From Candidatus Limnocylindrales bacterium (GTDB lineage: Bacteria; Chloroflexota; Limnocylindria; Limnocylindrales; CSP1-4), in the NCBI GenBank assembly GCA_036274475.1, contig DASUFO010000035.1, positions 6,655-70,654 of the forward strand: a DNA stretch of 64,000 nt. The letters are read 5' to 3'. The position numbers and the translations under genes were made by a program. Below, piece by piece: positions 1 to 21,711 of this stretch. Under the pieces are notes generated by a model. The model was not told the DNA's origin. It ran no database searches and saw only the letters and a program-made list of their open reading frames with translations. Position 1 is the first letter of the stretch; each line of letters opens with the position of its first letter.

Positions 1-383
1 TCGGTCGCGATCGCGTTGCCCATGATGTCGAGCGTGGGCCCGCTCCACTTGAAGGGGATGACCCCGGCGAGGTTCCAGGTCGTGATCTCCTCGCCCGTCG
101 ACGCCAGTGCGCTGATCGCCATCGTCGAGGGGATCACCTTGATCGCCTGCATCTGGAGCCACATCGCCAGCCACTGCGAGTTCGAATCGACGGGCCGCGA
201 GAGTCGCAGGTTCGTGTACTTGATCGGGCCGAGGAGCTTGTGCGTGAAGAGGTTGACCCCGCCCTCCTTGTACTCCTTGATGTCGTACTCGAAGCCGAGG
301 CCCTCGATCTTCGTCCAGACGCCGAGCGGCAGCACGCCGTCGATCGTGCAGCGGTAGACGATGCTCAGGGCCGGGTCGCTCAT
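1..383 (-). CDS. CIS tube-family protein (second tube, Afp5-like position). Only the N-terminal 127 codons are in the window; the gene runs off the left edge.
   Basis: Not in the ORF track because it is truncated. Reverse-strand ATG at 383..381 is preceded by AGGAG. Translation: MSDPALSIVYRCTIDGVLPLGVWTKIEGLGFEYDIKEYKEGGVNLFTHKLLGPIKYTNLRLSRPV... This shows the conserved phage tail tube (T4 gp19-like) signature: EGL..E..v.EYkEGG ... y.NL.L.R. Confidence 0.75.
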   Translation of the reverse strand, partial: MSDPALSIVYRCTIDGVLPLGVWTKIEGLGFEYDIKEYKEGGVNLFTHKLLGPIKYTNLRLSRPVDSNSQWLAMWLQMQAIKVIPSTMAISALASTGEEITTWNLAGVIPFKWSGPTLDIMGNAIAT

Positions 384-392
384 TCGTCGCTC

Positions 393-2369
393 CTAGATGT
401 CGAACGGCAGGCCGCGGGCCTCCCGCTCGTGGACGTATTCCATCCGCAGCTGGCGCTGGAACCGCGGGAACAGCGCCTTGGCGAGCTCCTCGAGCTCGCC
501 CTCCGATTGCCCGCCGCCGTCGTCCGGCGGCGGCGGCGCAGAGCCGTCGATGCGCTGCACGACGGGGCCCGACGCCTGGCCGCTCGCACCGAACGGGCCT
601 CCCGGCGTCGCCTGGACGATCGGGCCGAAGGCGCCGCTCGCGGCCGGCCCGACGATCGAGCCGCCGAGGATCGAGCCGCCCGCGCCGCCGGAGGCTGCCG
701 GAAAGTGGATGGTCGTCGTCGCCGGCGCGGCCGGAGCCGGCGTCGGCGGCCGGGCGAGCGTCATCGACGGCGCGTCGTGGCGACTCGTCTGGACCGTTCG
801 AGGGGAAGCGGCCGCTGGCGCCGAAGCGGGCATCGTCGCGAACAGGCTGGGCGCGGCGTCCAGGAACGTGCTCGACGATCCGCCGCCGGAGCCGGCAGCT
901 GGCACGGCCGTTGACGCGGCCCCGTCTGGCGCCGACCGCTGGACGGTCGCATCGTCGGCCGGGAGTGCGGCCGGTCCGACCGACGGTCGCAGCGATCGTG
1001 CGCCGACGAGGGGTCGTGGCTCGCTCGCTCGCGTGGACGGGGCGGCGGTCTGACGCTGGACCGGCGCAGCGTGCGCGGCGGCTGCCGCCGGGGATGTCGG
1101 GCGGTTGGCTTGTGAGCGTGCCACCGGCATCGACGCGGCGCCCGCGCCGGCGGACGCGGCCGGCGACGAAGGGGCGACGCGCGATCCGCCCGTCGCCGCC
1201 TCGACGTCGTGCCAGTGGCCAGGGCCACCTCCTTCGTCTGGGCCGCCTCCCGCCGCGGACCTCGAGACGACCGGCAGCTGGGGGAATCCGGCTGCCAACG
1301 GCCGGCCGACGTAGGGCGCCTGCGGTGAGCCGGGTCGCTCTGGGACTGGCAAGAGCGCGTCGTCGGCGTCGGCGGGCGAGACGCTCCGGGCGCCCTGCCC
1401 GCGCCGCTGGACCGTCGCGAAGATCGGTCGCGAGCCGGCGATCGGGGCGGCGCCAGGCGGACCGACGGCCGGCGACCGCGGGGCACCCGTCAGCACCGGT
1501 CCCGCCGCCGGAGTTCGCTGCAGCGTCGGCGGGTGAGCGCCGCGCAGCGGCGCGCCGAGGCCCGGCCGTCGGGGACCCGCTGGGCTGCTCGACGGGACCG
1601 CCGCATCCGGCGATCCGGATGGCAGCAACGGCGTGGTGCTCGGACCCGCCGCCCGGGTTGTCGCCTGAGGAGCGCCGGGCGCGGCCGGAGCGGTCGCCGA
1701 CGACGATGCCGTCGTGTCATCGGGCGAGGTCTGGACGTTCGTCCTTCGAGCGGCCGGCCGGTCGACGGGCCGCGGCGCGGCGATCGCGGCACTCGTCAGC
1801 GACCGCGTTGGGGCCTCGGCCCCGGAGCCTGGCGCGACCACCGGCAGCTGACGCGAGGGGGCCGTCGGCGCCGCCGCCGGCGAGACGGCTCCACCTTCAC
1901 CCGAGGCGGGTCCCCCGAGCGATGCACCCGCCGGCGCGGCCACCGGACCTGAATCGACAGTGACGGGGGCCGACAAGGCCCCGGCATCGGTCTCGGCCGT
2001 CCGGCGCTGGACGGGCCGGTCGACGAGCGATGCGTGGGACGTCAGCGAATCGACGGCGTGGACCGGAGCCGCAACCAGGCCGGCGGGCGCCAGCGGCGTC
2101 ACGTCATGACCCAGGGCGCCGACGATCGGCGGCAACGGCCGGGCGCCGGGAACCTCCGCGAGGAACGTTCGCGCGGACGCCACCACCGGCGGCTCGCCGC
2201 TGACGCGCTGGATCGGCGGCAACCCCGCCCAGGCGCCCGTGGGCGGCGCGTCGGGTGCCGGCCCGCGCGCTTCCGAGAGGCTCGGCAGCGTCGGGCCATC
2301 GCTCGTCGGCTCGGTCTCCGCCCGCGCCCCCTCCGAGCGGCCGAACGGCCACGGCAGGCGCACGATCAC
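393..2369 (-). CDS. Pro/Ala-rich CIS protein in the tape-measure position (function inferred from position only).
   Basis: 658 codons. The GTG start overlaps the upstream stop (GTGA at 2369-2366). The TAG stop lies 9 nt upstream of the next ATG, with AGGAG between them. Composition is low-complexity P/A/S/G, punctuated by seven (V/I/L)QR and two VQTS motifs. The C-terminus looks ordered: GELEELAKALFPRFQRQLRMEYVHEREARGLPFDI. Confidence 0.6.
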   Translation of the reverse strand: MIVRLPWPFGRSEGARAETEPTSDGPTLPSLSEARGPAPDAPPTGAWAGLPPIQRVSGEPPVVASARTFLAEVPGARPLPPIVGALGHDVTPLAPAGLVAAPVHAVDSLTSHASLVDRPVQRRTAETDAGALSAPVTVDSGPVAAPAGASLGGPASGEGGAVSPAAAPTAPSRQLPVVAPGSGAEAPTRSLTSAAIAAPRPVDRPAARRTNVQTSPDDTTASSSATAPAAPGAPQATTRAAGPSTTPLLPSGSPDAAVPSSSPAGPRRPGLGAPLRGAHPPTLQRTPAAGPVLTGAPRSPAVGPPGAAPIAGSRPIFATVQRRGQGARSVSPADADDALLPVPERPGSPQAPYVGRPLAAGFPQLPVVSRSAAGGGPDEGGGPGHWHDVEAATGGSRVAPSSPAASAGAGAASMPVARSQANRPTSPAAAAAHAAPVQRQTAAPSTRASEPRPLVGARSLRPSVGPAALPADDATVQRSAPDGAASTAVPAAGSGGGSSSTFLDAAPSLFATMPASAPAAASPRTVQTSRHDAPSMTLARPPTPAPAAPATTTIHFPAASGGAGGSILGGSIVGPAASGAFGPIVQATPGGPFGASGQASGPVVQRIDGSAPPPPDDGGGQSEGELEELAKALFPRFQRQLRMEYVHEREARGLPFDI

Positions 2370-2524
2370 GCCTCCTCGGACAGCCGCTTGTTGATCCGGC
2401 CGATCTCGTCAACGAAGCGCAGCCGGAGCGGATGCTCGAGGTCGAGAATCGTGTCCATCGGCCAGTGGAAGTGATAGGCGACGTACGCGACCTCTTCGAA
2501 CAGTCGATCCGTCGCGTACGTCAC
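2366..2524 (-). CDS. Small conserved CIS-associated protein, 52 aa (DUF6760-like; name from memory).
   Basis: Below the ORF-track length cutoff. GTG at 2524..2522 overlaps the upstream TGA (GTGA), and its own TGA (2368..2366) overlaps the next GTG. Translation: VTYATDRLFEEVAYVAYHFHWPMDTILDLEHPLRLRFVDEIGRINKRLSEEA. It is not low-complexity and looks helical. Confidence 0.6.
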   Translation of the reverse strand: MTYATDRLFEEVAYVAYHFHWPMDTILDLEHPLRLRFVDEIGRINKRLSEEA

Positions 2525-3015
2525 GATTCCCCCAGGCGCTGCTCACCCGCCACGTCCACTGTGAACCCGTGGTTGCAGGCCGGACAGGTCACGGACGCCT
2601 GGGTATGGCCCTCCTGGTTGATCCGTCGGTACAGGTCCTGGAGGAACGCGAGGTCCGACGCGAACAGGCCCTCGATGACCCCGGTGTGGACCTGCGGCAC
2701 GCTGCCGAGCCGGGTGACGACCCGTGACAGCAGGAGGATCGTCAGGTACGCCTCGTTCTCGCGGACCCGTGGATCGCGCTGCGGAATGATCTCGTCCCGG
2801 GCGGTGGCGAGGCGCATCACGCCCTCGCGGTGGACGGCGCCGGAGCCGTCGACGTAGCCGCGTGGCAGGACAAACGCGTACTCCGTGTGGAGCCCGTCCG
2901 CTCCGGCCGTCGGGACGGCGCCGGCGAGCCCGGCCGATCCGATCGCCGGGAGCCCCGGCCCGAGGCCGGCGGCCCCGGGCATGCTCAGTCCGTCGGGCCG
3001 CGTCGCGATCGTCAT
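2521..3015 (-). CDS. Phage tail assembly chaperone-like protein (Afp6 / gpE-gpG position).
   Basis: 164 aa. ATG at 3015 lies 7 nt after the tube stop. The N-terminus is Gly/Ala-rich. The core reads VMRLATARDEIIPQRDP...AYLTILLLSRVVTRLGS...LFASDLAFLQDLYRRIN, resembling the gpE/gpG-type chaperone pattern. C-terminal CPAC. The position between the tube gene and the putative tape measure supports the call. Confidence 0.55.
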   Translation of the reverse strand: MTIATRPDGLSMPGAAGLGPGLPAIGSAGLAGAVPTAGADGLHTEYAFVLPRGYVDGSGAVHREGVMRLATARDEIIPQRDPRVRENEAYLTILLLSRVVTRLGSVPQVHTGVIEGLFASDLAFLQDLYRRINQEGHTQASVTCPACNHGFTVDVAGEQRLGES

Positions 3016-3022
3016 CGGCCGC

Positions 3023-3457
3023 CTAGCCCTTCGCCAGCGTCTCGCACGACAGCGTGGCTTCCTCGATCTGGACCCCGCTGGCGGTCGCGCCGCCCTCCGA
3101 CAGGCTCAGCTTCGAGACCATCGCGTTCGTGAAGTTGTAGCGGACGACTTCCTCGCCGACCGTGTTCATGAGGATCGCCGAGCCGTTGCGGCGGTCCGGC
3201 GTGCCCTGCATGACGGCCAGGTGCCAGTCCCAGAGCTCCGTCGCGCCGGTGAGGCCGCGCTTCAGCGTGATCGTCGGCGTCTTCGGCTTGCCCGGCAACT
3301 TGCCGATCGTGATCTTGCCCTGTTCGTTCACGAACGGGTTGTCGACGATCTCGACCTCGCTGGCGACGCCGGAGACCGACGTGAAGTTCGCCACGACGCC
3401 CATGCCGTCGATGTCGAGCAGTACGTTGCCTTGCAGCAGGGGATCGGTTGTCGGCAC
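3023..3457 (-). CDS. CIS tail tube protein (T4 gp19-like / Afp1-Pvc1-like).
   Basis: 144 aa. GTG start with AAGGGAG about 7 nt upstream. Sequence: MPTTDPLLQGNVLLDIDGMGVVANFTSVSGVASEVEIVDN...ITLKRGLTGATELWDWH..., typical tube-family sequence. Confidence 0.85.
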   Translation of the reverse strand: MPTTDPLLQGNVLLDIDGMGVVANFTSVSGVASEVEIVDNPFVNEQGKITIGKLPGKPKTPTITLKRGLTGATELWDWHLAVMQGTPDRRNGSAILMNTVGEEVVRYNFTNAMVSKLSLSEGGATASGVQIEEATLSCETLAKG

Positions 3458-3537
3458 TGATGTCTCCCTTCGACCGTGCGGTCACTTGCCTGCGGTGCGG
3501 GCGGCGCCGGGTGGGGCCACGGCGCCGCCGCCGGGGA

Positions 3538-5064
3538 CTACTCCTCGACCGTTGCGCCGCCCGAGAACTGGGCGATGCGGAAGACGACGAACTCGGCTGG
3601 CTTGACCGGCGCGATGCCGATGTCGACGACGAGCTGGCCGGCGTCGCGGGACTCCGGCGGGTTGTTCTCCTCGTCGCACTTCACGAAGAACGCCTGGTCG
3701 GGCGTCGCGCCGAAGAGCGCGCCGTCGCGCCAGACGCGGAGCAGGAACGCGTTGACGGTCCGCTTCACGCGGCCCCAGAGGCGCATGTCGTTCGGCTCGA
3801 ACACCACCCACTGAGTGCCCTCGAAGATCGACTCCTCGACGAAGTTGAACAGCCGCCGGACGTTCAGGTACCGCCAGGCCGGATCGCTGGACAGCGTTCG
3901 TGCGCCCCAGACCCGGATGCCGCGGCCGGGGAACGCCCGGATGCAGTTGATCCCAGAGGGATTCAGTTGGTCGTGCTCGGCCTTGGTGATGTTCAGCTCG
4001 AGCGAGATCGCGCCCCGGATCACCTCGTTGGCCGGCGCCTTGTGGACGCCGCGGGTGTCGTCGCTCCGGGCCCAGATGCCGGCCATGTGGCCGCTCGGCG
4101 GGACGTGCGTCGCCTGGCCCGACAGTGGATCGAAGACCTTGATCCACGGCCAGTAGAGCGTCGCGTACTTGCTGTCGTAGCCGGCCTTGTCGACCCGCCA
4201 CTCCTTGATCTGCTGAGCGTTGAGACCGGGCGGCGCGTCGAGGATCGCGACGCGGTCGCCCATCAGCTCGCAGTGGGCGATCATCGCGAGCTGGACGGCC
4301 TGCAGGCCCTCGAGGTCGATGTTGCCCGCCTGGTAGACGGCCATGAGATCCGGGACGCTGAGCATCGTGATCTCGTCGACCGCCTCGAGCCCGGCGAACC
4401 CGGTCCGGTCGGCGCTGTTGCCGACGTAGTCGTCGGGGGTCACGCGGACCGGGACGCTCGTTCCGCCGCCACTGAGCGAGACGGAGCCGGTCGCGGGTAC
4501 GCGCTCGGCGACCGCCGCGCTGCCGACTTCCTCGATCGCGATGAGCTTGGACTCGGCCTTCACGACCGTGACGACGTTCTGCTTGCCCTTGCCGGTGGTG
4601 AGGTTGTCGAACGTCTCGACCGGCCGGCCGCCCTGGTTCACCGTGATCTTGAAGGTGTTCTCGGCGGTCTCGGATGACGGGCCGATGTCGACGGTGATGT
4701 CGTTCCCGCCGGGGCCGGCCTCCAGAGCCGAGACCCGGTACGTCGGGCTGTCCTTCTCCTTGGCGCTCGTCAGCTGGCCGGTCGCGGTCGGCATCGCGCC
4801 GTCAGCGCCGATGCGGACGATGTACGCAGCGCCGCCGCCGTTCAGGAAGTAGCCGTAGACGGCGTGGGCGAGATACGAGCCCTCGATGAAGTCACCGAAC
4901 GTCTGGGTGAACTGGCTCCAGTTCGTGACGAGCGTCGGCGTGTTCGCGGGTCCGCGCGCGGCGAGCCCGACGAACGCGGCTACGGCCGTTCCGACGCCCT
5001 CGATCGGACGCGAACCAGCCTCTACCTCCTCGATGTAGACGCCTGGGGACAGGTAGTTCGGCAT
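3538..5064 (-). CDS. Contractile tail sheath protein.
   Basis: The track ORF 3538..5547 is over-extended. The internal ATG at 5064..5062 gives MPNYLSPGVYIEEVEAGSRPIEGVGTAVAAFVGLA..., the canonical sheath N-terminus. The C-terminus ...IGIAPVKPAEFVVFRIAQF is also sheath-like. 508 aa. Confidence 0.9.
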   Translation of the reverse strand: MPNYLSPGVYIEEVEAGSRPIEGVGTAVAAFVGLAARGPANTPTLVTNWSQFTQTFGDFIEGSYLAHAVYGYFLNGGGAAYIVRIGADGAMPTATGQLTSAKEKDSPTYRVSALEAGPGGNDITVDIGPSSETAENTFKITVNQGGRPVETFDNLTTGKGKQNVVTVVKAESKLIAIEEVGSAAVAERVPATGSVSLSGGGTSVPVRVTPDDYVGNSADRTGFAGLEAVDEITMLSVPDLMAVYQAGNIDLEGLQAVQLAMIAHCELMGDRVAILDAPPGLNAQQIKEWRVDKAGYDSKYATLYWPWIKVFDPLSGQATHVPPSGHMAGIWARSDDTRGVHKAPANEVIRGAISLELNITKAEHDQLNPSGINCIRAFPGRGIRVWGARTLSSDPAWRYLNVRRLFNFVEESIFEGTQWVVFEPNDMRLWGRVKRTVNAFLLRVWRDGALFGATPDQAFFVKCDEENNPPESRDAGQLVVDIGIAPVKPAEFVVFRIAQFSGGATVEE

Positions 5065-5250
5065 GCGGGGCCCCTTCGCTGCGGAGGACAACCGGATACC
5101 GCCGACGCTCCCACCGCGCGCGGTCCCGGACAAGGACCGACCGGTCACGCGCCGGGGCCGGGATGTTGCCCGAAGGGGCGATCGGGCCTGCCCCGACGGC
5201 TGCCCGTCGGCGGCTGGTCGGCGCCGCCCATCGATTGGACGATCGCGCGG
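5065..5250. promoter_or_regulatory. Divergent intergenic (promoter) region between the sheath arm and the cap/ATPase arm.
   Basis: 186 nt between the two start codons. It contains perfect dyads CGGTCC-N7-GGACCG (5121-5139) and CCGACGG-N4-CCGTCGG (5193-5210). No -35/-10 hexamers are recognisable by eye. Confidence 0.4.
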
Positions 5251-5979
5251 ATGATCCATGAAGTCGACCAGCTGCTCGAGAAGCTGGTGAAGAAGGACGC
5301 GCTCAACGGCTCGTCCGTCGAGCTCGTGTTCGACGCGCCGACCAAGGACTGGGTCGCCCGACGGAGCGGCCCCGCCGTCGACCTGTACCTCTACGACATC
5401 CGCGAGGATCTCGAGCGGCGGGTGCCGGCCTGGGAGGACAAGAAGGACGCCGCCGGCGAGCGGACGACGGATCGCCGCCTCCCGCCCCGGCGCTACCGTC
5501 TCGCGTACCTCGTGACCGCGTGGACCCAGCGTCCGGAGGACGAGCACCGCCTGCTGTCGGCGCTCCTCGGCTGCTTCATCCGGAACGCCATGCTCAAGCC
5601 CGACGAACTCGAGGGAGCGCTCGCCGAGCCCGACCTGCCGATCTACATCGACGTCGCCCAGCCGCCGTCGCAGGACCGCTCGCTCGCGGACGTCTGGTCG
5701 GCGCTCGGCGGCGAGCTGAAGCCGTCGCTCGACGTGATCGTGACGGCGCCGATGGTCGTCTCCCGCAGCGCGCCGTACGGACCGCCGGTCCTCATCGGCC
5801 CGTCGCTCGGGATCGCAGCCGTGGGCGGGCCCAACGAAATCATCGAGGCGACGTCACGGGGCAAGCCCAGGCGGACGAACCGGCGGCTCGAGCCGCTGCC
5901 CGAAGAGACCGTCCCGAAACACGCGAAGGACGACGACCCGGGCCTGAGGCTCCGCGTTCGCGGCCTGCGCGCGGGCTGA
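5251..5979 (+). CDS. DUF4255 (Pvc16/Afp16-like) tail terminator/cap protein.
   Basis: The ATG at 5251 lies inside track ORF 4864..5979. Sequence: MIHEVDQLLEKLVKKDALNGSSVELVFDAPTKDWVARRSGPAVDLYLYDIREDLERR..., the typical DUF4255 N-domain motif (vdLyLYdi.E...R). Confidence 0.85.
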   Translation: MIHEVDQLLEKLVKKDALNGSSVELVFDAPTKDWVARRSGPAVDLYLYDIREDLERRVPAWEDKKDAAGERTTDRRLPPRRYRLAYLVTAWTQRPEDEHRLLSALLGCFIRNAMLKPDELEGALAEPDLPIYIDVAQPPSQDRSLADVWSALGGELKPSLDVIVTAPMVVSRSAPYGPPVLIGPSLGIAAVGGPNEIIEATSRGKPRRTNRRLEPLPEETVPKHAKDDDPGLRLRVRGLRAG

Positions 5980-5991
5980 CGGCGGGCCGGC

Positions 5992-8175
5992 ATGGCGGCG
6001 GCCAAGGCGCCCACGGCTCGATCTCAGACGGACGCAGGGCCGGCGAGGGACGGCGTTGCGCCTGCCCGCTCAGCCAGTGCGCCGGCGTCCTCCTCGGCGT
6101 CGTCGTCGGCCGAGGCGTCGCTCGCCTATCTGTTCGCCAGGCTGGAGATCGTCGAGGCGCGCGTCCGGGCTGCGGTCGATCGGCGCCGCGCCGACGACGT
6201 GGACCCGACCGATCGGTTCCGCGGCCTCTACATCTCCGATGCCCAGGTCGACGGGCTGCTCGCCGGCGCCACCGGGCCGTGGCTTCCGGACGAGGTCGAC
6301 GCCGCGACCACGGCGGCGCTCGCCTCGATCGAGGCCAACGCTGCGGCCGCCGAGCGGACCGGGGCGGATCTCCGCCTGCGACGCCTCGCGCGGTCGTTCG
6401 GCCTCGACGCATACGACGTCGAGCTGCTGCTGATCGCGCTCGCCCCGGACCTCGAGCCGCGCTTCGAACGGCTCTACGGCTATCTCCACGACGACGTCTC
6501 GCGGCGTCGAGCGAGCGCCGGTCTCGCGCTCGAGCTGTGCGGCTCGGGAGCTAGTCCCGGCACGGCTCCCGGCCGGGCGCGCCTGGGGCCCTCGGCGCCA
6601 CTCGTCGCGCGCGGCCTGATCGTCGTCGAAGACCCGGAGCGACCGTTCCTGACGCGCTCGCTGCGGGTCCCGGACCGAGTTGCCGCCCACCTGCTCGGCG
6701 ACGACACTCCGGATCCCGCGATCGAGCAGCTCCTCGTGGATTCGGTGGCGGCAGAGATCGGCGACGTCGACATGCTCGTTCGGGCGCTCGCGTCAGAGGT
6801 CCCGCTCGTCTACATCCGGGAGCGGCCGGGCGCGTCCGGCGGGTCGCTGGCCCGCGCGGCCCTCGCCCGCGTCGGCCGGCCGGTCGTCGAGCTCGACCTG
6901 AACCGGCTCGCGCCGACCGACGAGCCACGGACGATCGCCGCCGCCGCGGCGCGCGAGGCCGGGCTGCTCGGCGCGGGCCTCGTCGTCGGACCGCTGGAAC
7001 CGCTCGTCGACCAGGGCCCGGCGGCCGTGCGGGTGTTCGCGGAGTCGCGTCCCGGCATCGTGCTCATCGGCAATCGCGCGTGGGACCCGGCGTGGTCCCT
7101 CGAACCGCCGCTCCTGCTCGACGCGCCCGTGGCGACCGTCAAGGAACGCCACGAGATGTGGCTGGCGTCGCTCAACGGCGCGACGCCGACCGGCTTCGAC
7201 CCGGCGATCGTGACGCTCGCGTTCCGCCTCGCTCCGGGCCAGATCCGGCGCGCCGCCCAGGCTGCCCATCGGGCGTCCGATGCCGCGGACCGGCGGATGA
7301 CCGTCGACGACATTTCGGCCGGGGCGCGTGCTCAGAACGCGGCCGGCCTGGAGCGGCTCGCCCGGCGCATCGAACCGATGGTCGAGTGGGCGGACCTGGT
7401 CCTGCCACCGGTCGTCGACGCCCAGCTCCACGAGCTGACCGCGCGGGCCCGACATCGCGAGACTGTCGTCGGCGCGTGGGGAATGGGCCAGCGATCGCGC
7501 TCCCGGGGCATCACCGCGCTGTTCGCCGGCGACTCCGGCACGGGCAAGACGATGTCAGCCGAGGTCCTCGCCCATGACCTCGACTTCGACCTGTACGTGA
7601 TCGATCTCTCGACCGTCGTCGACAAGTACATCGGCGAGACCGAGAAGAACCTCGACCGGATCTTCACGGAGGCGGACCGGGTCAACGGCGTCCTCCTCTT
7701 CGACGAGGCCGATGCGCTGTTCGGCAAGCGGAGCGAGGTGAAGGACGCCCGCGATCGATATGCGAACGTGGAGGTCGCGTACCTCCTCCAGCGGATGGAG
7801 TCGTTCGACGGGGTGGCAATCCTCACGACGAATCTCCGGACGAACGTCGACGAGGCGTTCACCCGGCGGCTCGACGCGATCGTCGACTTCCCGATGCCCG
7901 AGGAGGAGGACCGCCGCCGGCTGTGGATGGCGAACCTGCCGGCGTCGCTGCCCCGCGACGGCGACCTCGACCTCGACTTCCTCGCCCGCCAGTTCCGCGT
8001 GTCGGGCGGCAACATCAAGAACATCTGCGTCACCGCGGCCTATCTCGCCGCCGCGGATGGCCGGCGCGTGTCGATGGCGGACCTGATCCGCGGCACGGAT
8101 CGCGAATACCGCAAGCTCGGCCGGCTCACGGTCGAGGCCGAGTTCGGCCCGTACTTCGAGCTGGTCTCGACATGA
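5992..8175 (+). CDS. CIS-associated AAA+ ATPase (Afp15/Pvc15-like).
   Basis: 727 aa. Walker A GDSGTGKT, Walker B VLLFDEADALF, and the sensor region ILTTNLRTNVDEAFTRRLD in the C-terminal third. It has the long N-terminal extension characteristic of eCIS ATPases. It starts 12 nt after the DUF4255 stop. Confidence 0.9.
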   Translation: MAAAKAPTARSQTDAGPARDGVAPARSASAPASSSASSSAEASLAYLFARLEIVEARVRAAVDRRRADDVDPTDRFRGLYISDAQVDGLLAGATGPWLPDEVDAATTAALASIEANAAAAERTGADLRLRRLARSFGLDAYDVELLLIALAPDLEPRFERLYGYLHDDVSRRRASAGLALELCGSGASPGTAPGRARLGPSAPLVARGLIVVEDPERPFLTRSLRVPDRVAAHLLGDDTPDPAIEQLLVDSVAAEIGDVDMLVRALASEVPLVYIRERPGASGGSLARAALARVGRPVVELDLNRLAPTDEPRTIAAAAAREAGLLGAGLVVGPLEPLVDQGPAAVRVFAESRPGIVLIGNRAWDPAWSLEPPLLLDAPVATVKERHEMWLASLNGATPTGFDPAIVTLAFRLAPGQIRRAAQAAHRASDAADRRMTVDDISAGARAQNAAGLERLARRIEPMVEWADLVLPPVVDAQLHELTARARHRETVVGAWGMGQRSRSRGITALFAGDSGTGKTMSAEVLAHDLDFDLYVIDLSTVVDKYIGETEKNLDRIFTEADRVNGVLLFDEADALFGKRSEVKDARDRYANVEVAYLLQRMESFDGVAILTTNLRTNVDEAFTRRLDAIVDFPMPEEEDRRRLWMANLPASLPRDGDLDLDFLARQFRVSGGNIKNICVTAAYLAAADGRRVSMADLIRGTDREYRKLGRLTVEAEFGPYFELVST

Positions 8176-8286
8176 GCCCGCCTCGCCGATGCCCGATCGG
8201 GCAGATGTGGCTGCGCGGCGTACCGGATGCCTTGTCCGGCCGCCCCCGAAGGGTGATGCTGGGACGACCACGTCGGAGGACGACCG

Positions 8287-8964
8287 ATGCATGAGTTCGA
8301 AACCGGGGAACGAACCCACCGGCGCAATCCGCCGGCCGCGCCCGGGACGGGGACGCCGGGTCCCGCGCGACCGGATGCCTCGCGAACTGGCGATCAGCGG
8401 ATGCCGCTGAGCCCTGCGTCGATCCTCGGGTTGCAGCGGACGGCCGGCAACGCGTCCGTCGTCCAGCTGCTCGGCGCCGACGAGGAACAGACGTCGCCGG
8501 TTCACGACGTCGTCGGCAAGGGCGGCGGCGCGCCCCTCGACGACGGAGTCCGGAGCGACATGGAGGGTCGGTTCGGCCAGAGCTTCTCGGATGTTCGGGT
8601 GCACACCGACGCGAAGGCCTCCGAATCGGCCGAGTCGGTCGGGGCGAATGCCTACACCGTCGGCAACGACATCGTCTTCCGGTCCGGGCACTTCGACGCA
8701 TCATCGCCCGTCGGCCAGCGGACGCTCGCCCACGAGCTGACCCACGTCGTCCAGCAGCGAAGCGGTCCGGTCGACGGCTCGCCCGCGCCGGGTGGGATCT
8801 CGCTGAGCAACCCGACGGATCGGTTCGAGCAGGCCGCCGACCGACACGCGGACCAGGTGATGTCGGGCGCGGCACCGGCCGGTTTGGAGGAATCCGAGGA
8901 CAGCATCCAGCGCGTCGTCCAGCGCGACGCCGCGGAGGACGAGCTGGAGGACGAGGCCGTCTAG
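8287..8964 (+). CDS. DUF4157 zincin-like (HExxH) protein, a putative CIS payload or payload adaptor.
   Basis: 225 aa. GGAGGA lies 6 nt upstream of the ATG. Sequence: PLDDGVRSDMEGRFGQSFSDVRVHTD...ANAYTVGNDIVFRSG...LAHELTHVVQQ (an HExxH motif) is the DUF4157 signature. It sits immediately downstream of the ATPase. Confidence 0.85.
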   Translation: MHEFETGERTHRRNPPAAPGTGTPGPARPDASRTGDQRMPLSPASILGLQRTAGNASVVQLLGADEEQTSPVHDVVGKGGGAPLDDGVRSDMEGRFGQSFSDVRVHTDAKASESAESVGANAYTVGNDIVFRSGHFDASSPVGQRTLAHELTHVVQQRSGPVDGSPAPGGISLSNPTDRFEQAADRHADQVMSGAAPAGLEESEDSIQRVVQRDAAEDELEDEAV

Positions 8965-9120: not shown

Positions 9121-9768
9121 CTAGATGAGCCCCTCGCGAATCGCGTATGCGACGGCGTGCGCCCGGTTGCGGAGCTCCAGCCGCGACGTGATGTCGTGGA
9201 TGATGTTCTTGACCGTCCGCTCCGAGTAGAAGAGCTGCCGCCCCACCTCGGCCGTGTCGTGGCCCTGGGCGAGCAGTCGGAGCACGGCGGTCTCGCGCTC
9301 CGTGAGGCCCGAGAACGTAAGGCCGCGCGGCGTCAGCACCTGGCGCTGGAGCTGGCCGACCTGGCGAAGCAGCCGCCCGAGGAGATCTGGCGACAGGGTG
9401 CCCTCGCCGGCCGCCGCGGATCGAATCGCCGCGGCCATGTTGCCGGCCGTCGCCTCGGAGCGGCGAATCACGCCGGACGCTCCGGCCTCGACCGCGGCCA
9501 GCAGGTCGCGATCGTCGACGCGCGCCACGAGCAACACGACCCGGTTCACGCCGCGCCCGCGAAGCGCCCGGAATTCGGCGACCACGTCGTCGCTCATCGC
9601 ATCGGCGACGACGAGCGCGACCGAGTCGTCGGTGGCGTCCTCGAGGCCCACGATCGTGAAGCCGTGCACCCGTCGCAGCTGGCTCGTGATCCCTGCCCGG
9701 GACAGCGGATCCGCCGCGCAGACGACGACCGGGATCTGCTCCTTGAACAGGATCGTTTCGGCAACCAT
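9121..9768 (-). CDS. LuxR/NarL-family response-regulator-like transcription factor with a degenerate receiver domain (orphan).
   Basis: The track ORF is over-extended. ATG at 9768 has GGAGGG upstream. C-terminal HTH: LTERETAVLRLLAQGHDTAEVGRQLFYSERTVKNIIHDITSRLELRNRAHAV. The receiver has CAAD instead of the DD pocket, retains an Asp in VVADAM, has Ala where T/S is expected, and reads GVIRR instead of the conserved Lys. No kinase gene is adjacent. Confidence 0.8.
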   Translation of the reverse strand: MVAETILFKEQIPVVVCAADPLSRAGITSQLRRVHGFTIVGLEDATDDSVALVVADAMSDDVVAEFRALRGRGVNRVVLLVARVDDRDLLAAVEAGASGVIRRSEATAGNMAAAIRSAAAGEGTLSPDLLGRLLRQVGQLQRQVLTPRGLTFSGLTERETAVLRLLAQGHDTAEVGRQLFYSERTVKNIIHDITSRLELRNRAHAVAYAIREGLI

Positions 9769-9905
9769 CGAGTGCCCTCCGGGCATCGCCGCGGCGTGTG
9801 ACGGGTCCCCCCGATGGGCTCCCTGAAGGCCCTCCGACGGCGTTGCGAGGGACGCTAGCGCCGGCCCTTTTCGTCCGCTCAACGTCCGCTCAACCGACGC
9901 TGCGC

Positions 9906-9925
9906 CGGGCACGGAACTGTGCCCG
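9906..9925. promoter_or_regulatory. 20-bp perfect dyad CGGGCAC-N6-GTGCCCG, a candidate operator.
   Basis: Read directly from the sequence. It lies in the 234-nt divergent region between the LuxR-type gene (start 9768) and the envelope operon (start 10003, or alternatively 9919). Confidence 0.35.
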
Positions 9926-10002
9926 AACGGGCAGCCGGGCCGCCCGGCCGGCGGCGCAGGACGGCGTGGTTCGGCGCTCCGGCGGCCGTTACACTCGCGC
10001 CC

Positions 10003-11274
10003 GTGGGTGCATCCGTCACGCTGACCGCCCCGGCGGTCGCCGTCGAGCCCGGCGCCGAGGCAACCGTCGAGTTCAAGCTGCGCAACACGGGCGCGGTCGT
10101 CGACGAGTTCACGCTCGGGATCCTCGGTGACGCCGCGGGCTGGACGGCGGTCGTTCCGCCGACGATCTCGCTCTTCCCCGGCGCCGAGGAGACCGGCCGG
10201 ATCGTGTTCCGGCCGCCGCGCAGCGCGCAGGTCCCGGCAGGGCCGATGCCGTTCGCGCTTCATGCCGTCTCGCGCGAGGATGCGGCGGGGTCCGCGGTCG
10301 AGGAGGGGACGGTCACCGTCGGCGCGTTCAACGACCCCTTCGCCGAGCTCGTTCCGCGGACGTCCCGGGGCAGCCGGTCAGCGAGTCACGACCTCGCCGT
10401 CGACAACCGCGGCAACGTCCGCCTGAATGCCGAGGTCGAGGCCGCCGACGTCGACCGTCAGCTCGAGTTCGACGTCAACCCGCCGGGTGTTGTCGTCGAG
10501 CCCGGGATGGCGCAGTTCGCCAAGGTCCGGGTCAAGCCGGTCAAACGCTTCTGGCGTGGCTCGCCGAAGACGCGGCCGTTCCAGCTCGTCGTCCGATCGG
10601 AGGGCGCGCCCCCGGTGACGCTCGACGGGGCGCTGCTCCAGGAGGCGATCCTGCCGCCCTGGTTCGGGCGGGCACTCATCGCGCTGGTCGCGCTGCTGAT
10701 CGCGCTGGTCATCCTCTGGCTGTTCGTGTTGAAGCCGTCGATCCAGAGCGCCGCCTCGGAGGCCGTCGCCTCGCCGCTTGGCGACCTCCGGAGCGATGTC
10801 AACGAGGCCCTCGAGAACGCCGGATTGCCCACCATGGGTCCGGGCGAGCCGAGCGCGGCCCCGCCGACGACACCGCCGGCGAGCGGCGGCCCCGGCGGCA
10901 GCGGTGCCCCGGGCGGTTCCGGGGCGCCGGCGACGCCAGCGGCACCGACGCCCGGCGGGCCGTTCATCCCGGGGCTCGGCAACCCGGTCGACGGACGCCT
11001 TGCCCAGGGCTCCGGATCGGTCAAGCCGGCCGGGACGCTGTTCCTCACCGACATCGTGTTCTCGAACCCGAACGCTCGCGAAGGAGCCATCTCCCTGCTC
11101 CGCGACGGCAACCCGCTCATCGAGGAGCGGCTCGAGAACTTCCGGAGCCTCGACTACCACTGGGTCACGCCGATCGTCATCGAGGCCGGCCACGAGCTGG
11201 CCCTGTCGCTGACCTGCACCGCGGGTGCCGAATGCGATCCGTCCGTCCTCTATTCCGGCTACCTCCGGCCGTAG
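10003..11274 (+). CDS. Bitopic membrane protein: N-terminal tandem beta-sandwich-like region, one TM segment, Pro/Gly linker, ~110-aa C-terminal domain.
   Basis: The start is uncertain: GTG at 10003 is preferred, GTG at 9919 is the track start. There is no signal peptide. The N-terminal region reads VTLTAPAVAVEPGAEATVEFKLRNTGAVVDEFTL... (CARDB/NEW3-like). The TM segment is WFGRALIALVALLIALVILWLFVL. The linker is TPPASGGPGGSGAPGGSGAP. The C-terminal domain ends CTAGAECDPSVLYSGYLRP. Confidence 0.7.
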   Translation: MGASVTLTAPAVAVEPGAEATVEFKLRNTGAVVDEFTLGILGDAAGWTAVVPPTISLFPGAEETGRIVFRPPRSAQVPAGPMPFALHAVSREDAAGSAVEEGTVTVGAFNDPFAELVPRTSRGSRSASHDLAVDNRGNVRLNAEVEAADVDRQLEFDVNPPGVVVEPGMAQFAKVRVKPVKRFWRGSPKTRPFQLVVRSEGAPPVTLDGALLQEAILPPWFGRALIALVALLIALVILWLFVLKPSIQSAASEAVASPLGDLRSDVNEALENAGLPTMGPGEPSAAPPTTPPASGGPGGSGAPGGSGAPATPAAPTPGGPFIPGLGNPVDGRLAQGSGSVKPAGTLFLTDIVFSNPNAREGAISLLRDGNPLIEERLENFRSLDYHWVTPIVIEAGHELALSLTCTAGAECDPSVLYSGYLRP

Positions 11275-13472
11275 TCCGCGCCGCTCGCCGCTCCTCGCCG
11301 CGACGTCAGCGACCGGCCGGGGTCGCCGTCGCGCTCGGGCTCGTCCTCGTGGGAGTTGGCTCGGCGTCCGGCGGTCACCCGATGGAACCGCCCGGCGATG
11401 CCAGCGGCTCCGCTGTCGTCGGGCCCGCGATTGCCCGCGCGAATCCGCTCACGCCCGATACGGCCGCTGCGGCGCCACCCGGATCGAGCGGCCTCGTCTC
11501 GCCGGCGCGGAACGGCGGCTTCGCGAACGGTCCCTCGAGCGTGCCGTCGATCTCCGAGAACGGCCGCTGGGTCGCGTTCACGTCGCTCGCGAACAACCTC
11601 GTCCAGGGCGATTCGAACGATACCCAGGATGTCTTCCTCCGCGACCGAAGCGACGGCACGACCGTCCGGCTGCCGCTGCCCGGCGGTGGTGCGGTTCCGG
11701 CCGGAGGCACTGCGTCGGAGCCCGCGATCTCCGCCGACGGGTCGGTCGTCGCCTTCACCTACACGCCGCCCGCGCCTGCGCCACCGCCATCGGCGACGCC
11801 GACACCGACACCGGCGATCATCCTGCTCGCGGTCGCCCCGTGCTCCGGCTCGCTCGTGATCGCCTGGCACCGGGATACCGGGGCGTCCGAGATCGCCTCG
11901 ATCACGGCGGACGACACGATCGCCTGCCGGAGCAGCGGGCCGTCCGTGTCGGGCGACGGGACCCGCATCGCGTTCGTCCAGCTCGTCAATCTTGGCGCCG
12001 CGGGCGTCGCGTTCAGCCAGGTGTTCGTTCGCGACGTGGCCGCCGGCACGACGACGTACGTCTCGGGCAACCCCGGCGCGGTCGGCAACGCCAACAGCCG
12101 GAACCCGGCGATTTCCGGGGACGGTCGCGTGGTCGCCTTTGATTCCGACGCGAGCAACCTCGTCGCGGGCGACGCGGCGGGCGCGAGCGACGTCTTCGCC
12201 CGGCGCCTGCCGGACGGCCCCATCGAGCTGATCAGCCGTCGCCAGGGCGGCAGCGCGAACGGGCCCAGCCTCGCCCCATCCGTGTCCGCCGACGGTTCCG
12301 TGATCGCGTTCGAGTCCAACGCGACGAATCTCGCGCCCGGTGCCGCGGCCGCTCGCAACGTCTACGTCCGTGATCGGTCAGCCGGGGTGACGAGCCTCGC
12401 TTCGGTCGACTCCGGGGGCACGGCGGCCGCGGGCGACAGTGGTCAGGCGTCGATCAGCGGCGACGGGTCGATCGTCGCGTTCGCCTCGGTCGCCGCCGAC
12501 CTCGCCCTGTTCGGCCCGCCGCTGACGGTCTCCGGACCGAACGCCGACCTGGCCGCGGTCGCTCCTCCCAAACCCACCGAGGTCTACGCCCACGACCTCG
12601 TCACCGGCCACACGATCCGTGTGTCCGAGGCGCGGGGCGGAGGGGCGGCCGGCGGCGTGAATCTCCAGCCGTCGGTCGGCGGCAACGGTCGGTACGTTGC
12701 GTTCACTTCCACGTCGCCGAACATCGTCCGTGGCGACGGCAACCAGGTCGCGGACGTGTTCGTGCGCGATTTCCCGGCCGCGCCGGCGATCGCGCCCGAT
12801 CCCCTCGAATTCGGCCCATGGGCGCTCGGCATCGTGGGCCCGCCACTGCCGGCGACCGTGTCGAACGCCGGCTGGGCGCCGGTCACGATCACTGCGGCGG
12901 ACGTCGGCGGATCGGCCGCCGGCGACTTCTCGATCGCCGTCAATGACTGCCAGGATCGCGTCCTCAGGTTCAGCCAGACGTGCCAGGTGTCGCTGACGTT
13001 CGCGGCCGGCAAGGCCGGCGAGCGCAACGCGACGCTCGAGGTCGAGCACTCCGGCCCGAAGCCGCCCGCGGTCGTCGCGATCCACGGCGTCGGCATCGAG
13101 ATTCCGGGCGTCACGCCGGGCGACACGACGCTCGAGATCAAGCCGCCGGTCGGGCGGCCGGGGATCGTCGTCATCGTCACGGGTTCCGGGCTCCCGGGAA
13201 ACACCGACCTGACGCTCGCCTGGAGCCGCGGCATCACGCCCAAGCTGCCACCGATCCGGACCGACGTTCGGGGCAACTTCCGGGTCCAGGTGCTCGTGTT
13301 CCACAACGACGTCATCGGTCCCCGTGACCTGGTCGCCACGACCGTCGGCCCCGTCGCGTTCCCGCCGATCAGTGCGCGGTTCCTCGTCGTCGAGCCGCCG
13401 AGCGAGCCGCCGCGTTTCGAGCCGGGTGATCCGTCGGTGACCCGCCCGCAGTCGATCATCTTCCGCCGCTAG
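11232..13472 (+). CDS. Secreted seven-bladed PD40/TolB-like beta-propeller protein with C-terminal choice-of-anchor-D / Ig-like domains.
   Basis: Signal-like N-terminus: RPAGVAVALGLVLVGVGSASG. Seven repeats of P(S/A)(I/V)S.(D/N)G..(V/I)AF.S.A.NLV.GD.N...DVF.RD. Then LEFGPWALGIVGPPLPATVSNAGWAPVTITAADVGG...FSIAVNDC (choice-of-anchor-D-like). It overlaps the previous gene by 43 nt. Confidence 0.8.
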   Translation: MRSVRPLFRLPPAVVRAARRSSPRRQRPAGVAVALGLVLVGVGSASGGHPMEPPGDASGSAVVGPAIARANPLTPDTAAAAPPGSSGLVSPARNGGFANGPSSVPSISENGRWVAFTSLANNLVQGDSNDTQDVFLRDRSDGTTVRLPLPGGGAVPAGGTASEPAISADGSVVAFTYTPPAPAPPPSATPTPTPAIILLAVAPCSGSLVIAWHRDTGASEIASITADDTIACRSSGPSVSGDGTRIAFVQLVNLGAAGVAFSQVFVRDVAAGTTTYVSGNPGAVGNANSRNPAISGDGRVVAFDSDASNLVAGDAAGASDVFARRLPDGPIELISRRQGGSANGPSLAPSVSADGSVIAFESNATNLAPGAAAARNVYVRDRSAGVTSLASVDSGGTAAAGDSGQASISGDGSIVAFASVAADLALFGPPLTVSGPNADLAAVAPPKPTEVYAHDLVTGHTIRVSEARGGGAAGGVNLQPSVGGNGRYVAFTSTSPNIVRGDGNQVADVFVRDFPAAPAIAPDPLEFGPWALGIVGPPLPATVSNAGWAPVTITAADVGGSAAGDFSIAVNDCQDRVLRFSQTCQVSLTFAAGKAGERNATLEVEHSGPKPPAVVAIHGVGIEIPGVTPGDTTLEIKPPVGRPGIVVIVTGSGLPGNTDLTLAWSRGITPKLPPIRTDVRGNFRVQVLVFHNDVIGPRDLVATTVGPVAFPPISARFLVVEPPSEPPRFEPGDPSVTRPQSIIFRR

Positions 13473-13474
13473 CG

Positions 13475-14575
13475 ATGGCGTCCGAGACGGTCATCTGTCG
13501 CCGCTGCGGCGTCGCGAACCCCGCCGGCGATCAGTTCTGCGGATCGTGCGGCGCGTTTCTCGAGTGGGAATCGGACGCGGCGCCGGAGGCGGATACGGCC
13601 GCCGGCCCGCCACCCGGCGGTCCGCTCCCGGCACAGGATCCCGTCACGGAGGACTGGAGCGGCCGCACGTTCCCCTCGCCGCCGATCACGGCAGAGCCGC
13701 CACCGCCGCCACCGCCGCCACCGCCGGTCCCGGCGCCGGATGCGCCGCAGCCCATGCCGGGCTTCACGGTCTGCCCGACGTGCGGCTCGGGCAACCCGCC
13801 GGGCCGGACGTTCTGCCATTCCTGCGGCAACGTCCTCGCGAAGGCACCGACGAGCGCGGCCGGGACGGGTCCCAAGCAGACACACGACCGCGAGCCCCGG
13901 CGGATCCCCGGCTGGCTGCCGCTCGCGATCGCCGCCGGGCTCGTCGTCGGCGTCGTCGTCATCCTCGTGACGGTTGTCCTCAAGCCCAGCGCGCCGCCGT
14001 CGGTCGCCCTCCCGAGCGCGACGCTCACGCCGACGCTCGAAGTCCCGCCCTCGATCACCGTCCCGCCGCCAGCGTCCGGCGGCGCAACGACCGCCGCCGG
14101 TTCAAGTGCGCCGGGCTCGACCGTCCAGCTGACGCTGGCAGGGGCGAGCGCGTCCTCGGTTGCCGCCGACACGCCCGACATGGCCGCTGCCAACGTGATC
14201 GACGGCCGCCTCGACACGCGCTGGCAGGAGGCCGTCGGCTCGGCGCCGGGCGAGTGGGTCGAGGTCACGTTCGCGACGGCCCGGCTCGACTACCTCGTCG
14301 TGTACTCCGGCTTCCAGCTGAGCCACGACTCGTTCGTCGCGACGAAGCGGCCACAGAACGTCGTCGTCACGGTGAACGGCGGCTCTCCGGTGGGCTTCGT
14401 CCTCCAGGACTCGGAGCTCCCGCAGCGCATCGATATCGCCGACACTCCCGGCGCGACCGTCGTCCGCATCCAGACCGCGTCGACGTACCCGGCCGCCGCG
14501 AGCGCTTACCCGGGCAGCCCGATCGATGCCGCGACGATCAGCGAGATCCGTGCGTTCGGGGCGGCCGGCGGGTGA
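13475..14575 (+). CDS. Double zinc-ribbon, poly-Pro, TM, discoidin (F5/8 type C-like) domain protein.
   Basis: Two zinc ribbons: CRRCGVANPAGDQFCGSCG and CPTCGSGNPPGRTFCHSCG. A run of ten Pro residues. TM segment WLPLAIAAGLVVGVVVILVTVVL. C-terminal NVIDGRLDTRWQEAVGSAPGEWVEVTF...ISEIRAF is discoidin-like. It starts 2 nt after the previous stop. Confidence 0.75.
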   Translation: MASETVICRRCGVANPAGDQFCGSCGAFLEWESDAAPEADTAAGPPPGGPLPAQDPVTEDWSGRTFPSPPITAEPPPPPPPPPPVPAPDAPQPMPGFTVCPTCGSGNPPGRTFCHSCGNVLAKAPTSAAGTGPKQTHDREPRRIPGWLPLAIAAGLVVGVVVILVTVVLKPSAPPSVALPSATLTPTLEVPPSITVPPPASGGATTAAGSSAPGSTVQLTLAGASASSVAADTPDMAAANVIDGRLDTRWQEAVGSAPGEWVEVTFATARLDYLVVYSGFQLSHDSFVATKRPQNVVVTVNGGSPVGFVLQDSELPQRIDIADTPGATVVRIQTASTYPAAASAYPGSPIDAATISEIRAFGAAGG

Positions 14576-14690
14576 GGATCGCTGACCGCTCGCACGTCGC
14601 TACCCCGTTCCCGCCGCTCGAGCTCGCGTCGTATCCTGCCGATCTGGGCACGCCGGCGAGGGTCGATGCCGACGGGCACGAGGGCAGCGA

Positions 14691-21514: not shown

Positions 21515-21711
21515 ACCGGCGAGGCCGCCCCAATGGACAACCGGATATCACGCCGGAAACACCCGGGTGATTCCGTGCGAAAACGAGATACATCGGCGAT
21601 ATGGGCGCTGTACAGTGCGGGTCCTGCCGCTTCGTCGTGGTACGCCCGGTCGCCCAGAGGGTCCAACAGGAGGGACGGTCGACCGGTTCGTCAGTCAGGA
21701 GGGTTCTGGCG

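Follow-up and report, generated by a model that had tools for sequence, protein, structure and literature searches.

The sheath-proximal half of a probable subtype IId contractile injection system in an uncultured Limnocylindrales-like member of the Chloroflexota

A probable subtype IId cluster at the left end of the window

The stretch of DNA analysed here, 64,000 nucleotides (nt) of contig DASUFO010000035.1 (hereafter referred to as the window), begins inside a gene cluster for a contractile injection system (CIS). Positions 1 to approximately 14575 very probably represent the sheath-proximal half of a CIS of subtype IId, and its host is most likely an uncultured Limnocylindrales-like member of the Chloroflexota. 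Subtype IId is the lineage of the cytoplasmic Streptomyces CIS (CIS-Sc/SLP) and of the intracellular CIS of Chloroflexota and Deinococcota. It includes the cytoplasmic systems of S. coelicolor, S. venezuelae and S. lividans (PMC10066040, PMC10020575, PMC10286715), as well as the intracellular systems that were visualised by cryo-tomography in Roseiflexus, other Chloroflexota and Deinococcota (PMC12998442). The CIS locus in the window is real and looks intact, and it is an ordinary member of this known and recently well-studied lineage.

Gene coordinates were derived from a listing of open reading frames and their translation, and protein families were assigned by a Pfam search against curated cut-offs. 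A preliminary description of the first 8,964 nt had listed nine CIS genes, all of which were found in place. The Pfam matches were far above the curated cut-offs for seven of the nine proteins, and the profile searches that had been proposed for the sheath, tube, Pvc16_N, AAA and DUF4157 families all gave such matches. An eighth protein, of 164 amino acids (aa), was recognised through a match to a PHROG family of chaperones. The minus-strand operon begins at the sheath gene, followed by the genes for the inner tube, the chaperone-like protein, a DUF6760 protein, a disordered protein of 658 aa and the tube initiator. From the sheath gene onward, the spacings are an 80-nt gap, a 7-nt gap, two successive 4-nt overlaps and a 9-nt gap. 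The divergent operon holds the genes for the cap (Cis16), the AAA+ ATPase (Cis15) and a small protein with DUF4157.

The contractile sheath (Cis2-like; 3538-5064, minus strand; Phage_sheath_1, 1.8e-24; Phage_sheath_1C, 3.6e-20) begins with MPNYLSPGVYIEEV. It aligns almost end to end with the sheath structures of the Streptomyces CIS (E-values of 1e-203 for 8bky/9gtp and 1.4e-200 for 8bl4/9gts), whereas matches to the Pvc2 and Afp2 structures reach only about 1e-50. The tail terminator or cap (Cis16/Afp16-like, DUF4255; 5251-5979, plus strand; Pvc16_N, 2.3e-38) behaves similarly, with an E-value of 5.9e-56 for 9gts_0A, which is the Pvc16-N protein of a Streptomyces CIS entry, and of 2e-05 for Afp16. 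Judged by these E-values, both proteins side with Cis2 and Cis16 of Streptomyces rather than with their Afp/PVC counterparts. When plasmids were searched by tblastn, the identity of the sheath was 66% to Kitasatospora, 58-59% to Streptomyces, 47-49% to Deinococcus and 37-44% to filamentous cyanobacteria; the window sheath is, in other words, closer to Streptomycetaceae (58-66%) than to Deinococcus (47-49%).

The inner tube protein (Cis1a/Afp1-like; 3023-3457, minus strand; Phage_T4_gp19, 1.9e-21) matched Pvc1, Afp1 and Streptomyces tube chains in the PDB. Of the second tube gene (1-383, minus strand; Phage_T4_gp19, 1.3e-19) only the 5' part is included, since it starts at position 383 and its 3' end lies beyond position 1; the full-length homologue in the most closely related locus, L002, comprises 158 aa. 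Its best solved structure is 9gtp_a, a 140-aa chain that is present in six copies in a Streptomyces CIS entry (E-value of 3.4e-18), and this fits with an identification as the tube initiator (Cis1b/Afp5-like). The best PDB matches of the sheath, the cap and the tube initiator are thus all from the Streptomyces CIS. Lastly, the AAA+ ATPase of 727 aa with an N-terminal winged-helix domain (WHD) (Cis15/Afp15-like; 5992-8175, plus strand; WHD, 1e-32; AAA, 2.1e-23) is Cdc48/p97 D2-like, and its Walker A (GDSGTGKT) and Walker B (LLFDEAD) motifs are both intact.

The sheath, gp19-like tubes, DUF4255 cap and AAA+ ATPase are also shared with the subtype I systems Afp and PVC of Serratia and Photorhabdus, with PDB matches ranging from 1e-50 to 1e-05. 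However, Afp/PVC are characterised by three sheath paralogues, co-directional afp1-16 genes, Afp13 fibres, a helical Afp14 tape measure and 3' toxins (PMC6899500), and none of these Afp/PVC-specific features was found in the window or its relatives.

The view of the preliminary description that this is the edge of a CIS locus, and neither a prophage tail nor a type VI secretion system, is borne out by the marker content (Pvc16_N, WHD+AAA, eCIS_core). The order of sheath, tube, chaperone, tape-measure-slot protein and baseplate is that of contractile phage tails, and the PHROG match of the 164-aa protein is likewise shared with such tail modules. A defective prophage tail or an R-type tailocin module is nevertheless highly improbable, because the Pvc16_N cap, the dedicated WHD+AAA+ ATPase and DUF4157 are all present. 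Cap, ATPase and DUF4157 were considered by Vladimirov et al. (PMC10020575) and Geller et al. to be the distinguishing marks of extracellular CIS (eCIS) regions. Furthermore, no capsid, portal, terminase, integrase or lysis family was found in the Pfam scan of the window from 9 to 27.5 kb or in the 10-kb flanks of the relatives, which agrees with the earlier remark that capsid, terminase and lysis genes are missing on the right side, and the cassette keeps its form across distant phyla. The contractile sheath, the tube and the AAA+ ATPase would also be in keeping with a type VI secretion system, but this reading has even less to recommend it and can practically be discounted. The sheath is a single Phage_sheath_1 protein rather than TssB/TssC, the tube is gp19-like and not Hcp, the ATPase is Cdc48-like with a WHD and not ClpV, and no TssJLM-type family was present among the scanned proteins of the window and L002 or the families recorded for the related loci L009-L011. 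The prophage and type VI readings were dropped on these markers.

The preliminary description had also held that the host is not a classical model for such systems. Indeed, the DnaK protein encoded in the window shares 91% identity with a protein of Candidatus Limnocylindrales and 81% with one that is labelled Chloroflexota bacterium, and the nearest loci all belong to metagenome-assembled genomes (MAGs) of Chloroflexota. The named homologues of the CIS proteins come from MAGs of Limnocylindrales, Chloroflexi, Dormibacter and Aeromicrobium.

A rigid cassette in syntenic relatives

Relatives were collected by scanning the truncated tube protein against species-representative genomes, which yielded eight loci, all in Chloroflexota MAGs. 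Among the loci that are compared here, L002, L005-L007, L009 and L010 are Chloroflexota and other MAG or metagenomic contigs (more than 1.8 Mb in the case of L009 and L010), and L011 belongs to Candidatus Dormibacter (Dormibacterota). The closest locus is L002, whose sheath is 92% identical to that of the window; for the flanking genes, LuxR and NDH-2, the identity is 75% in either case. In L002, the second tube gene is followed by genes for a CIS_tube + LysM protein, a single VgrG (GPD + base_V), PAAR, gp25, baseplate J, Tail_P2_I and two zinc-ribbon proteins, and then by an oppositely oriented gene for a BTAD regulator. The same post-tube order was observed in L009, L010 and L011. Overall, a cassette of 16-17 genes has an identical orientation in L002, L005-L007, L009, L010 and L011, and the protein encoded between DUF6760 and the second tube has a length of 633-667 aa in these relatives.

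The expectation that baseplate, spike and PAAR genes lie beyond position 1 is supported by synteny, as these genes follow the second tube gene in every syntenic relative. The operon would accordingly continue to the left with genes for a Cis7-like LysM tube protein, VgrG, PAAR, gp25, baseplate J and P2_I. Neither the clusters of the relatives nor their 10-kb flanks contain genes for a fibre (Afp13), a large Afp12, Afp14 or a head, and zinc-ribbon proteins with a transmembrane (TM) segment are found at the CisA position, with no fibre gene after the baseplate. According to Chen 2019 (PMC6899500), subtype IId is distinguished by a single contiguous afp8, a single afp11, the presence of afp10 (PAAR) and the lack of afp13 and afp14. 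All of these traits are seen in L002 and L009-L011, the genes concerned being located outside the window.

When the relatives are included, the operon order (sheath, tube, chaperone-like, DUF6760, Pro/Ala-rich, tube initiator, LysM tube, VgrG, gp25, J, P2_I, zinc-ribbon membrane protein) is the same as in the Streptomyces CIS. LuxR, the N-domain of the Sco4256-8 type, a small DUF4157 protein and divergent promoters are common to both as well (PMC10020575; PMC13277306). The lineage-specific genes, namely those for the chaperone-like, DUF6760, Pro/Ala-rich and LuxR proteins and the RICIN-type N-domain, are shared with the Streptomyces clusters. There are also clear differences. The window protein in the tape-measure slot has about half the length of its Streptomyces counterparts (658 versus 1244-1383 aa), PAAR, which S. 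coelicolor lacks, is found in the Chloroflexota relatives, the window DUF4157 gene has no adjacent gene for a Sle1-type coiled-coil effector, and the extracytoplasmic domain of the window zinc-ribbon protein is a glycan binder of the discoidin type. The Roseiflexus or Chloroflexota-Deinococcota clade (PMC12998442) shares with the window the phylum, subtype IId and fibre-less clusters; its particles are unattached in the cytoplasm. The description of this clade by Gaisin et al. 2026 is based on thermophiles and extremophiles, whereas the window locus and its relatives belong to MAGs labelled Limnocylindrales or Chloroflexia.

By itself, the locus adds little to what is known. Subtype IId has been catalogued (dbeCIS), its Streptomyces members have been resolved at atomic detail, and those of Chloroflexota were imaged in cells in 2026. 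Its value is comparative: these compact versions isolate a minimal lineage-specific set composed of the chaperone-like protein, DUF6760, a short Pro/Ala-rich protein, a small DUF4157 protein and zinc-ribbon membrane proteins. Moreover, one rigid cassette, head-to-head arms included, extends across Chloroflexota and Dormibacterota, and its structural operon is found in Actinomycetota as well.

Head-to-head organisation of the two operons

The sheath and DUF4255 genes are separated by a divergent intergenic region of exactly 186 nt (5065-5250), which presumably serves as a bidirectional promoter or regulatory region. In the preliminary description this divergent layout was called unusual. It does differ from Afp/PVC, but the same whole layout was found in seven further loci. 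In L002, L005, L006, L007, L009, L010 and L011, the genes for DUF4255, AAA and DUF4157 read away from the sheath operon over a short spacer, and on a Kitasatospora plasmid (L013) the DUF4255 gene is likewise divergent from the sheath gene. The head-to-head layout is the norm in this lineage and gives no reason for special interest.

For the S. coelicolor cluster, two divergent promoter regions have been described (PMC10020575). On two Streptomyces plasmids (L014 and L016), the genes for a regulator, DUF4255 and AAA are co-directional with the sheath operon, whereas those for DUF4255 and AAA in the window read directly away from it. An oppositely oriented block lies between these genes and the sheath operon, and it consists of DUF4157 and RICIN genes in L014, and of genes for a BTAD regulator and a hydrolase in L016. 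This arrangement is in line with the two promoter regions of S. coelicolor mentioned above. In the subtype IId cluster on the Deinococcus aquaticus plasmid pDATS01 (L015), which is arranged differently, the genes for DUF4255, gp25, baseplate J, an FHA protein, a protein kinase of 1596 aa and VgrG are all divergent from the sheath operon, and approximately 4.3 kb without a listed gene precedes the DUF4157 gene.

The spacer is itself conserved. When it is aligned together with roughly 30 nt of each adjoining coding region, the mean column identity among six loci is 80%, while the DUF4255 proteins of these loci are just 63-78% identical. CCAGCCG, three copies of GGGCA and CCTTGT are invariant blocks in this alignment, and GTGGGAG(C/G)GTC is near-invariant, with one base differing in L002. 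The 186 nt contain no sigma-70 consensus and no terminator, and they revealed no Rfam family and no RNA covariation. A structured RNA was considered and rejected, because the covariation term in RNAalifold was positive (i.e. unfavourable) and no Rfam family was matched. We therefore presume that the spacer is conserved regulatory DNA that would serve both operons.

A Pro/Ala-rich protein in the tape-measure slot

The one mildly new lead that the locus offers is the 658-aa protein rich in Pro, Ala, Gly and Ser (393-2369, minus strand), which was assigned to the tape-measure slot by its position. This slot comes after the chaperone pair and before the tube initiator, where phages encode their tape measure. 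The protein contains 16% P, 20% A, 12% G and 10% S, and it had no match in Pfam, PHROG, NCBIfam or the PDB. Closer examination revealed seven [VIL]QR motifs, where 0.21 would be expected; seven were reached in none of 20000 shuffles. Such a motif is also present in the window DUF4157 protein. Both ends of the 658-aa protein are conserved (RLPWPFGR...WAxLPPIQR at the N-terminus and ...LFxRxxxxLRxExxxEREARGLxFD at the C-terminus), and they enclose an interior rich in Pro, Ala, Gly and Ser that is devoid of TM segments.

The 66 homologues of this protein (P0121-P0186) are all at most 45% identical to it, but their length is kept at 678 +/- 31 aa in the 42 homologues that include both termini. The Streptomyces counterparts, which are missing from the plasmid gene tables, are longer, with 1244 aa (L014, 15766-19500) and 1383 aa (L016, 14786-18937); they contain 9 and 20 [VIL]QR motifs, respectively, and a similar C-terminal helix. 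Because the length is kept while the sequence drifts, and because of its position in the tape-measure slot, this family is a candidate length ruler or tube-lumen protein. We propose only tentatively that it may be an unrecognised ruler and lumen protein of subtype IId, and we regard this as rather doubtful. A point against it is the Pro/Ala-rich composition, which is unlike that of helical tape measures, and the slot protein differs from its counterpart in contractile phage tails in not being helical. Published particle lengths are 233 nm for S. coelicolor, 217 nm for Roseiflexus, 238 nm for C. chliarophilus and 365 nm for D. aquatilis. The CIS-Sc structure paper reported a uniform particle length although there is no tape-measure gene (PMC12237407), and this open point would be answered if the Pro/Ala-rich protein indeed sets the length of the particle.

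A large and mostly disordered protein is also encoded just upstream of the tube initiator and baseplate in the S. davawensis CIS, where it is the tape-measure-related effector Tme (PMC11126660). However, the 658-aa protein of the window lacks a DUF4157, TM or nuclease domain, and DUF4157 is encoded in the window by a separate gene for 225 aa. In the Kitasatospora locus L013, the slot is occupied by a DUF4157-containing protein of 1243 aa, which by eye shares an RR.GLGAPL motif and a C-terminal helix with the window protein; BLAST aligned just an 11-residue stretch of the two, with an E-value of 0.17.

The chaperone-like and DUF6760 genes

The 164-aa tail-assembly-chaperone-like protein (2521-3015, minus strand) matched PHROG 508, 'tail assembly chaperone', as did all 39 homologues with which it was aligned (40 of 40; best E-value of 6.7e-08), and the label 'chaperone-like' therefore holds. 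It matched no Pfam family and had no usable match in a sequence search of the PDB. At least 7999 homologues were found, and none among the matches listed carries a Pfam domain. There are about 60 invariant columns among the 40 aligned sequences, and a single CPxC lies close to the C-terminus. The AlphaFold2 model of the protein is poor, with a mean predicted local distance difference test score of 56.6 and a predicted template modelling score of 0.39. The following gene encodes a DUF6760 protein of 52 aa (2366-2524, minus strand; PF20546, 1.6e-12), and it overlaps with both of its neighbours by 4 nt. DUF6760 is 98-100% identical in the Chloroflexota relatives and 62-69% identical in Streptomycetaceae and Dormibacterota. 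For Streptomycetaceae the identities amount to 60-71% for the chaperone-like protein and 62-63% for DUF6760.

At the junction of these two genes (approximately 2512-2536, minus strand), CTGGGGGAATCGTGACGTACGC spans the overlap of stop and start codons. This is the most conserved 30-nt segment in an alignment of 480 nt from 10 loci of three phyla, with column identities of 0.98 and 0.94. It holds a Glu codon ending in A (GAA), while third positions in this gene set have about 90% G+C, and in Kitasatospora the start codon is CTG in place of GTG. The chaperone-like and DUF6760 proteins might be expressed in part as a G/GT-like fusion via the very conserved CTGGGGGAATCGTGA junction. In contrast to the G/GT of phage tails, however, DUF6760 has its own GTG start that overlaps the stop codon, and no obvious slippery heptamer. 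A canonical -1 frameshift was rejected: no X XXY YYZ heptamer is present at the junction, and in the upstream direction the reading frame of DUF6760 stays open for just 7 codons. A Shine-Dalgarno sequence combined with dual coding is the simpler reading of this conserved junction.

The small DUF4157 protein

Directly after the ATPase gene lies the gene for a small DUF4157 (eCIS core) protein of 225 aa with the motif HELTH (8287-8964, plus strand; eCIS_core, 3.1e-33); its start may be at 8401 instead of 8287. The protein is composed of a disordered N-terminal part of about 80 residues (...LGLQRTAGN..., which includes an LQR motif), the HExxH domain and a short acidic tail. In L009-L011, the ATPase gene is likewise followed directly by that of an orthologue of 231-241 aa, and L002 and L005-L007 have aligned homologues at this place.

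DUF4157 is the eCIS core domain and a marker of eCIS toxins or cargo (PMC8213781). The preliminary description had referred to this protein as a payload, which is an over-reading: no effector domain was found in it, and it resembles the small Sle2-type partner protein. The S. lividans DUF4157 protein Sle2, which is also small, binds the tube initiator and stabilises a partner effector (PMC13277306). In AlgoCIS, loading does not require DUF4157, but it does depend on the disordered N-terminus and on the AAA+ ATPase (bioRxiv 10.64898/2026.05.27.728243). In view of these reports and of the missing effector domain, 'adaptor or cargo-type protein' is the better label.

Genes to the right of position 8964 and the likely mode of action

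The locus had been taken to end at position 8964. This boundary is too tight, as genes for a LuxR regulator, a protein of the Sco4256-8 type and a protein of CisA-like architecture lie further to the right. The LuxR/GerE-family cluster regulator (9121-10263, minus strand; GerE, 2.4e-13) probably has an internal true start, near 9880-9945. It shares 75% identity with the cluster-flanking LuxR of L002 and L009 and 45% with that of the Streptomyces cluster L014. It is followed by a gene for a single-pass membrane protein of the Sco4256-4258 family (9919-11274, plus strand), which probably starts near 9950-10000. This protein consists of an Ig/PapD-like N-domain, a TM segment (residues 225-243, counted from a start at 10003) and a variable C-domain, with matches to Cep192_D3 and fn3_5. 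Its residues 19-283 are 37% identical over 265 aa to the N-terminal portion of a RICIN-domain protein of the Streptomyces CIS cluster L014 (E-value of 6.6e-51), and its first 265 or so residues are 69% identical to the product of the gene beside LuxR in L009. Sco4256-4258 have been described as CIS-associated effectors with a shared N-domain, one TM segment and a variable C-domain (PMC10066040, PMC10020575).

The membrane protein of CisA-like architecture (13475-14575, plus strand; Zn_Ribbon_1, DZR, NADase_transloc; NADase_discoid, 2.2e-19) has two zinc ribbons, a Pro-rich linker, a TM segment at residues 150-168 and an extracytoplasmic NADase-type glycan-binding (discoidin) domain, which matches the published description of CisA/Sco4242 (PMC10020575, PMC12237407). 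Two ribbons, a TM segment and a C-terminal domain are also found at the CisA position in L011 and in Streptomyces L014, and L002 splits the ribbons over two adjacent genes. No match was obtained between the window protein and the CisA-position protein of L014, and in Kitasatospora L013 the ribbon motifs alone were matched. Together, the genes for the Sco4256-8-type protein, a PD40 beta-propeller protein of 746 aa, the zinc-ribbon protein and two proteins with N-terminal hydrophobic segments (326 and 633 aa) form a five-gene block (9919-17572, plus strand). In L002, where LuxR directly abuts NDH-2, these five genes are absent between the two. The block therefore looks like a variable accessory module, and it is probably an accessory or effector module of the CIS.

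By analogy with the homologues whose mode of action has been studied (PMC10066040, PMC10020575, PMC12237407, PMC12998442), the baseplate and spike hub would nucleate polymerisation of the tube and sheath, free in the cytoplasm and to a fixed length. The chaperone-like protein and DUF6760 would assist the protein from the tape-measure slot, and a DUF4255 hexamer would cap the particle. The ATPase may help to load or unfold cargo, which the small DUF4157 protein could link to the tube initiator, while LuxR would control both divergent operons. Upon stress, the particle would dock at the membrane via the zinc-ribbon bitopic protein and fire, and firing would then kill or lyse the producing cell rather than a foreign target.

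Several points weigh against this scheme and against the assignment on which it is built. Expression, assembly, cellular location and a function in cell death are all carried over from Streptomyces and Roseiflexus. The window ends inside the second tube gene, so that baseplate, spike and PAAR are known from relatives. The similarity of the protein encoded at 13475-14575 to the actinobacterial CisA-position proteins is confined to the ribbons, and we therefore call it CisA-like in architecture only. Roseiflexus, which we compared by its published description, was reported to lack close cisA homologues (Gaisin et al., PMC12998442), whereas the group of the window has zinc-ribbon/TM proteins at that position. 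Furthermore, Vladimirov et al. interpreted Sco4242, the protein at the CisA position, as a putative fibre (PMC10020575), and this would agree with an extracellular mode.

The main alternative is that the same machine acts as a classical extracellular CIS. Lysis would set the particles free, the zinc-ribbon/discoidin protein would serve as the fibre by which they attach to other cells, and DUF4157-associated cargo would be injected. The role of DUF4157 as a mark of eCIS toxins or cargo (PMC8213781) and the glycan-binding domain of the fibre-position protein speak for this possibility, and Vladimirov et al., besides proposing Sco4242 as a fibre, saw contracted sheaths in the culture medium (PMC10020575). 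We nevertheless consider it unlikely. The fibre-position proteins have a single TM segment with the zinc ribbons on its N-terminal side, and CisA was shown to be a bitopic membrane protein and not a component of the particle (PMC12237407). Moreover, the subtype IId particles of Streptomyces, Roseiflexus and Deinococcota are free in the cytoplasm, the contracted ones being found in dead cells (PMC10066040, PMC12998442), and Pfam recognised no toxin domain in the window locus. Intracellular action on the producing cell is thus the reading that we favour.

Genomic context

The G+C content is approximately 70% across the whole window, and exact copies of the chaperone-like and DUF4255 proteins of the window were found in the sequencing run SRR25158403. 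Further to the right, positions 21601-27552 (plus strand) encode a secreted-type S8 subtilase of 1983 aa, for which no link to the CIS was seen; it contains several CarboxypepD_reg repeats as well as a BACON-like domain and, at its C-terminus, a malectin domain. A tRNA-Asn(GTT) gene is located at 48876-48950 (plus strand), the DnaK gene at 60407-62311 (plus strand), and a DnaJ-like gene begins at 63715 (plus strand). These genes represent an ordinary chromosomal context, which supports a cellular, non-viral origin of the DNA.

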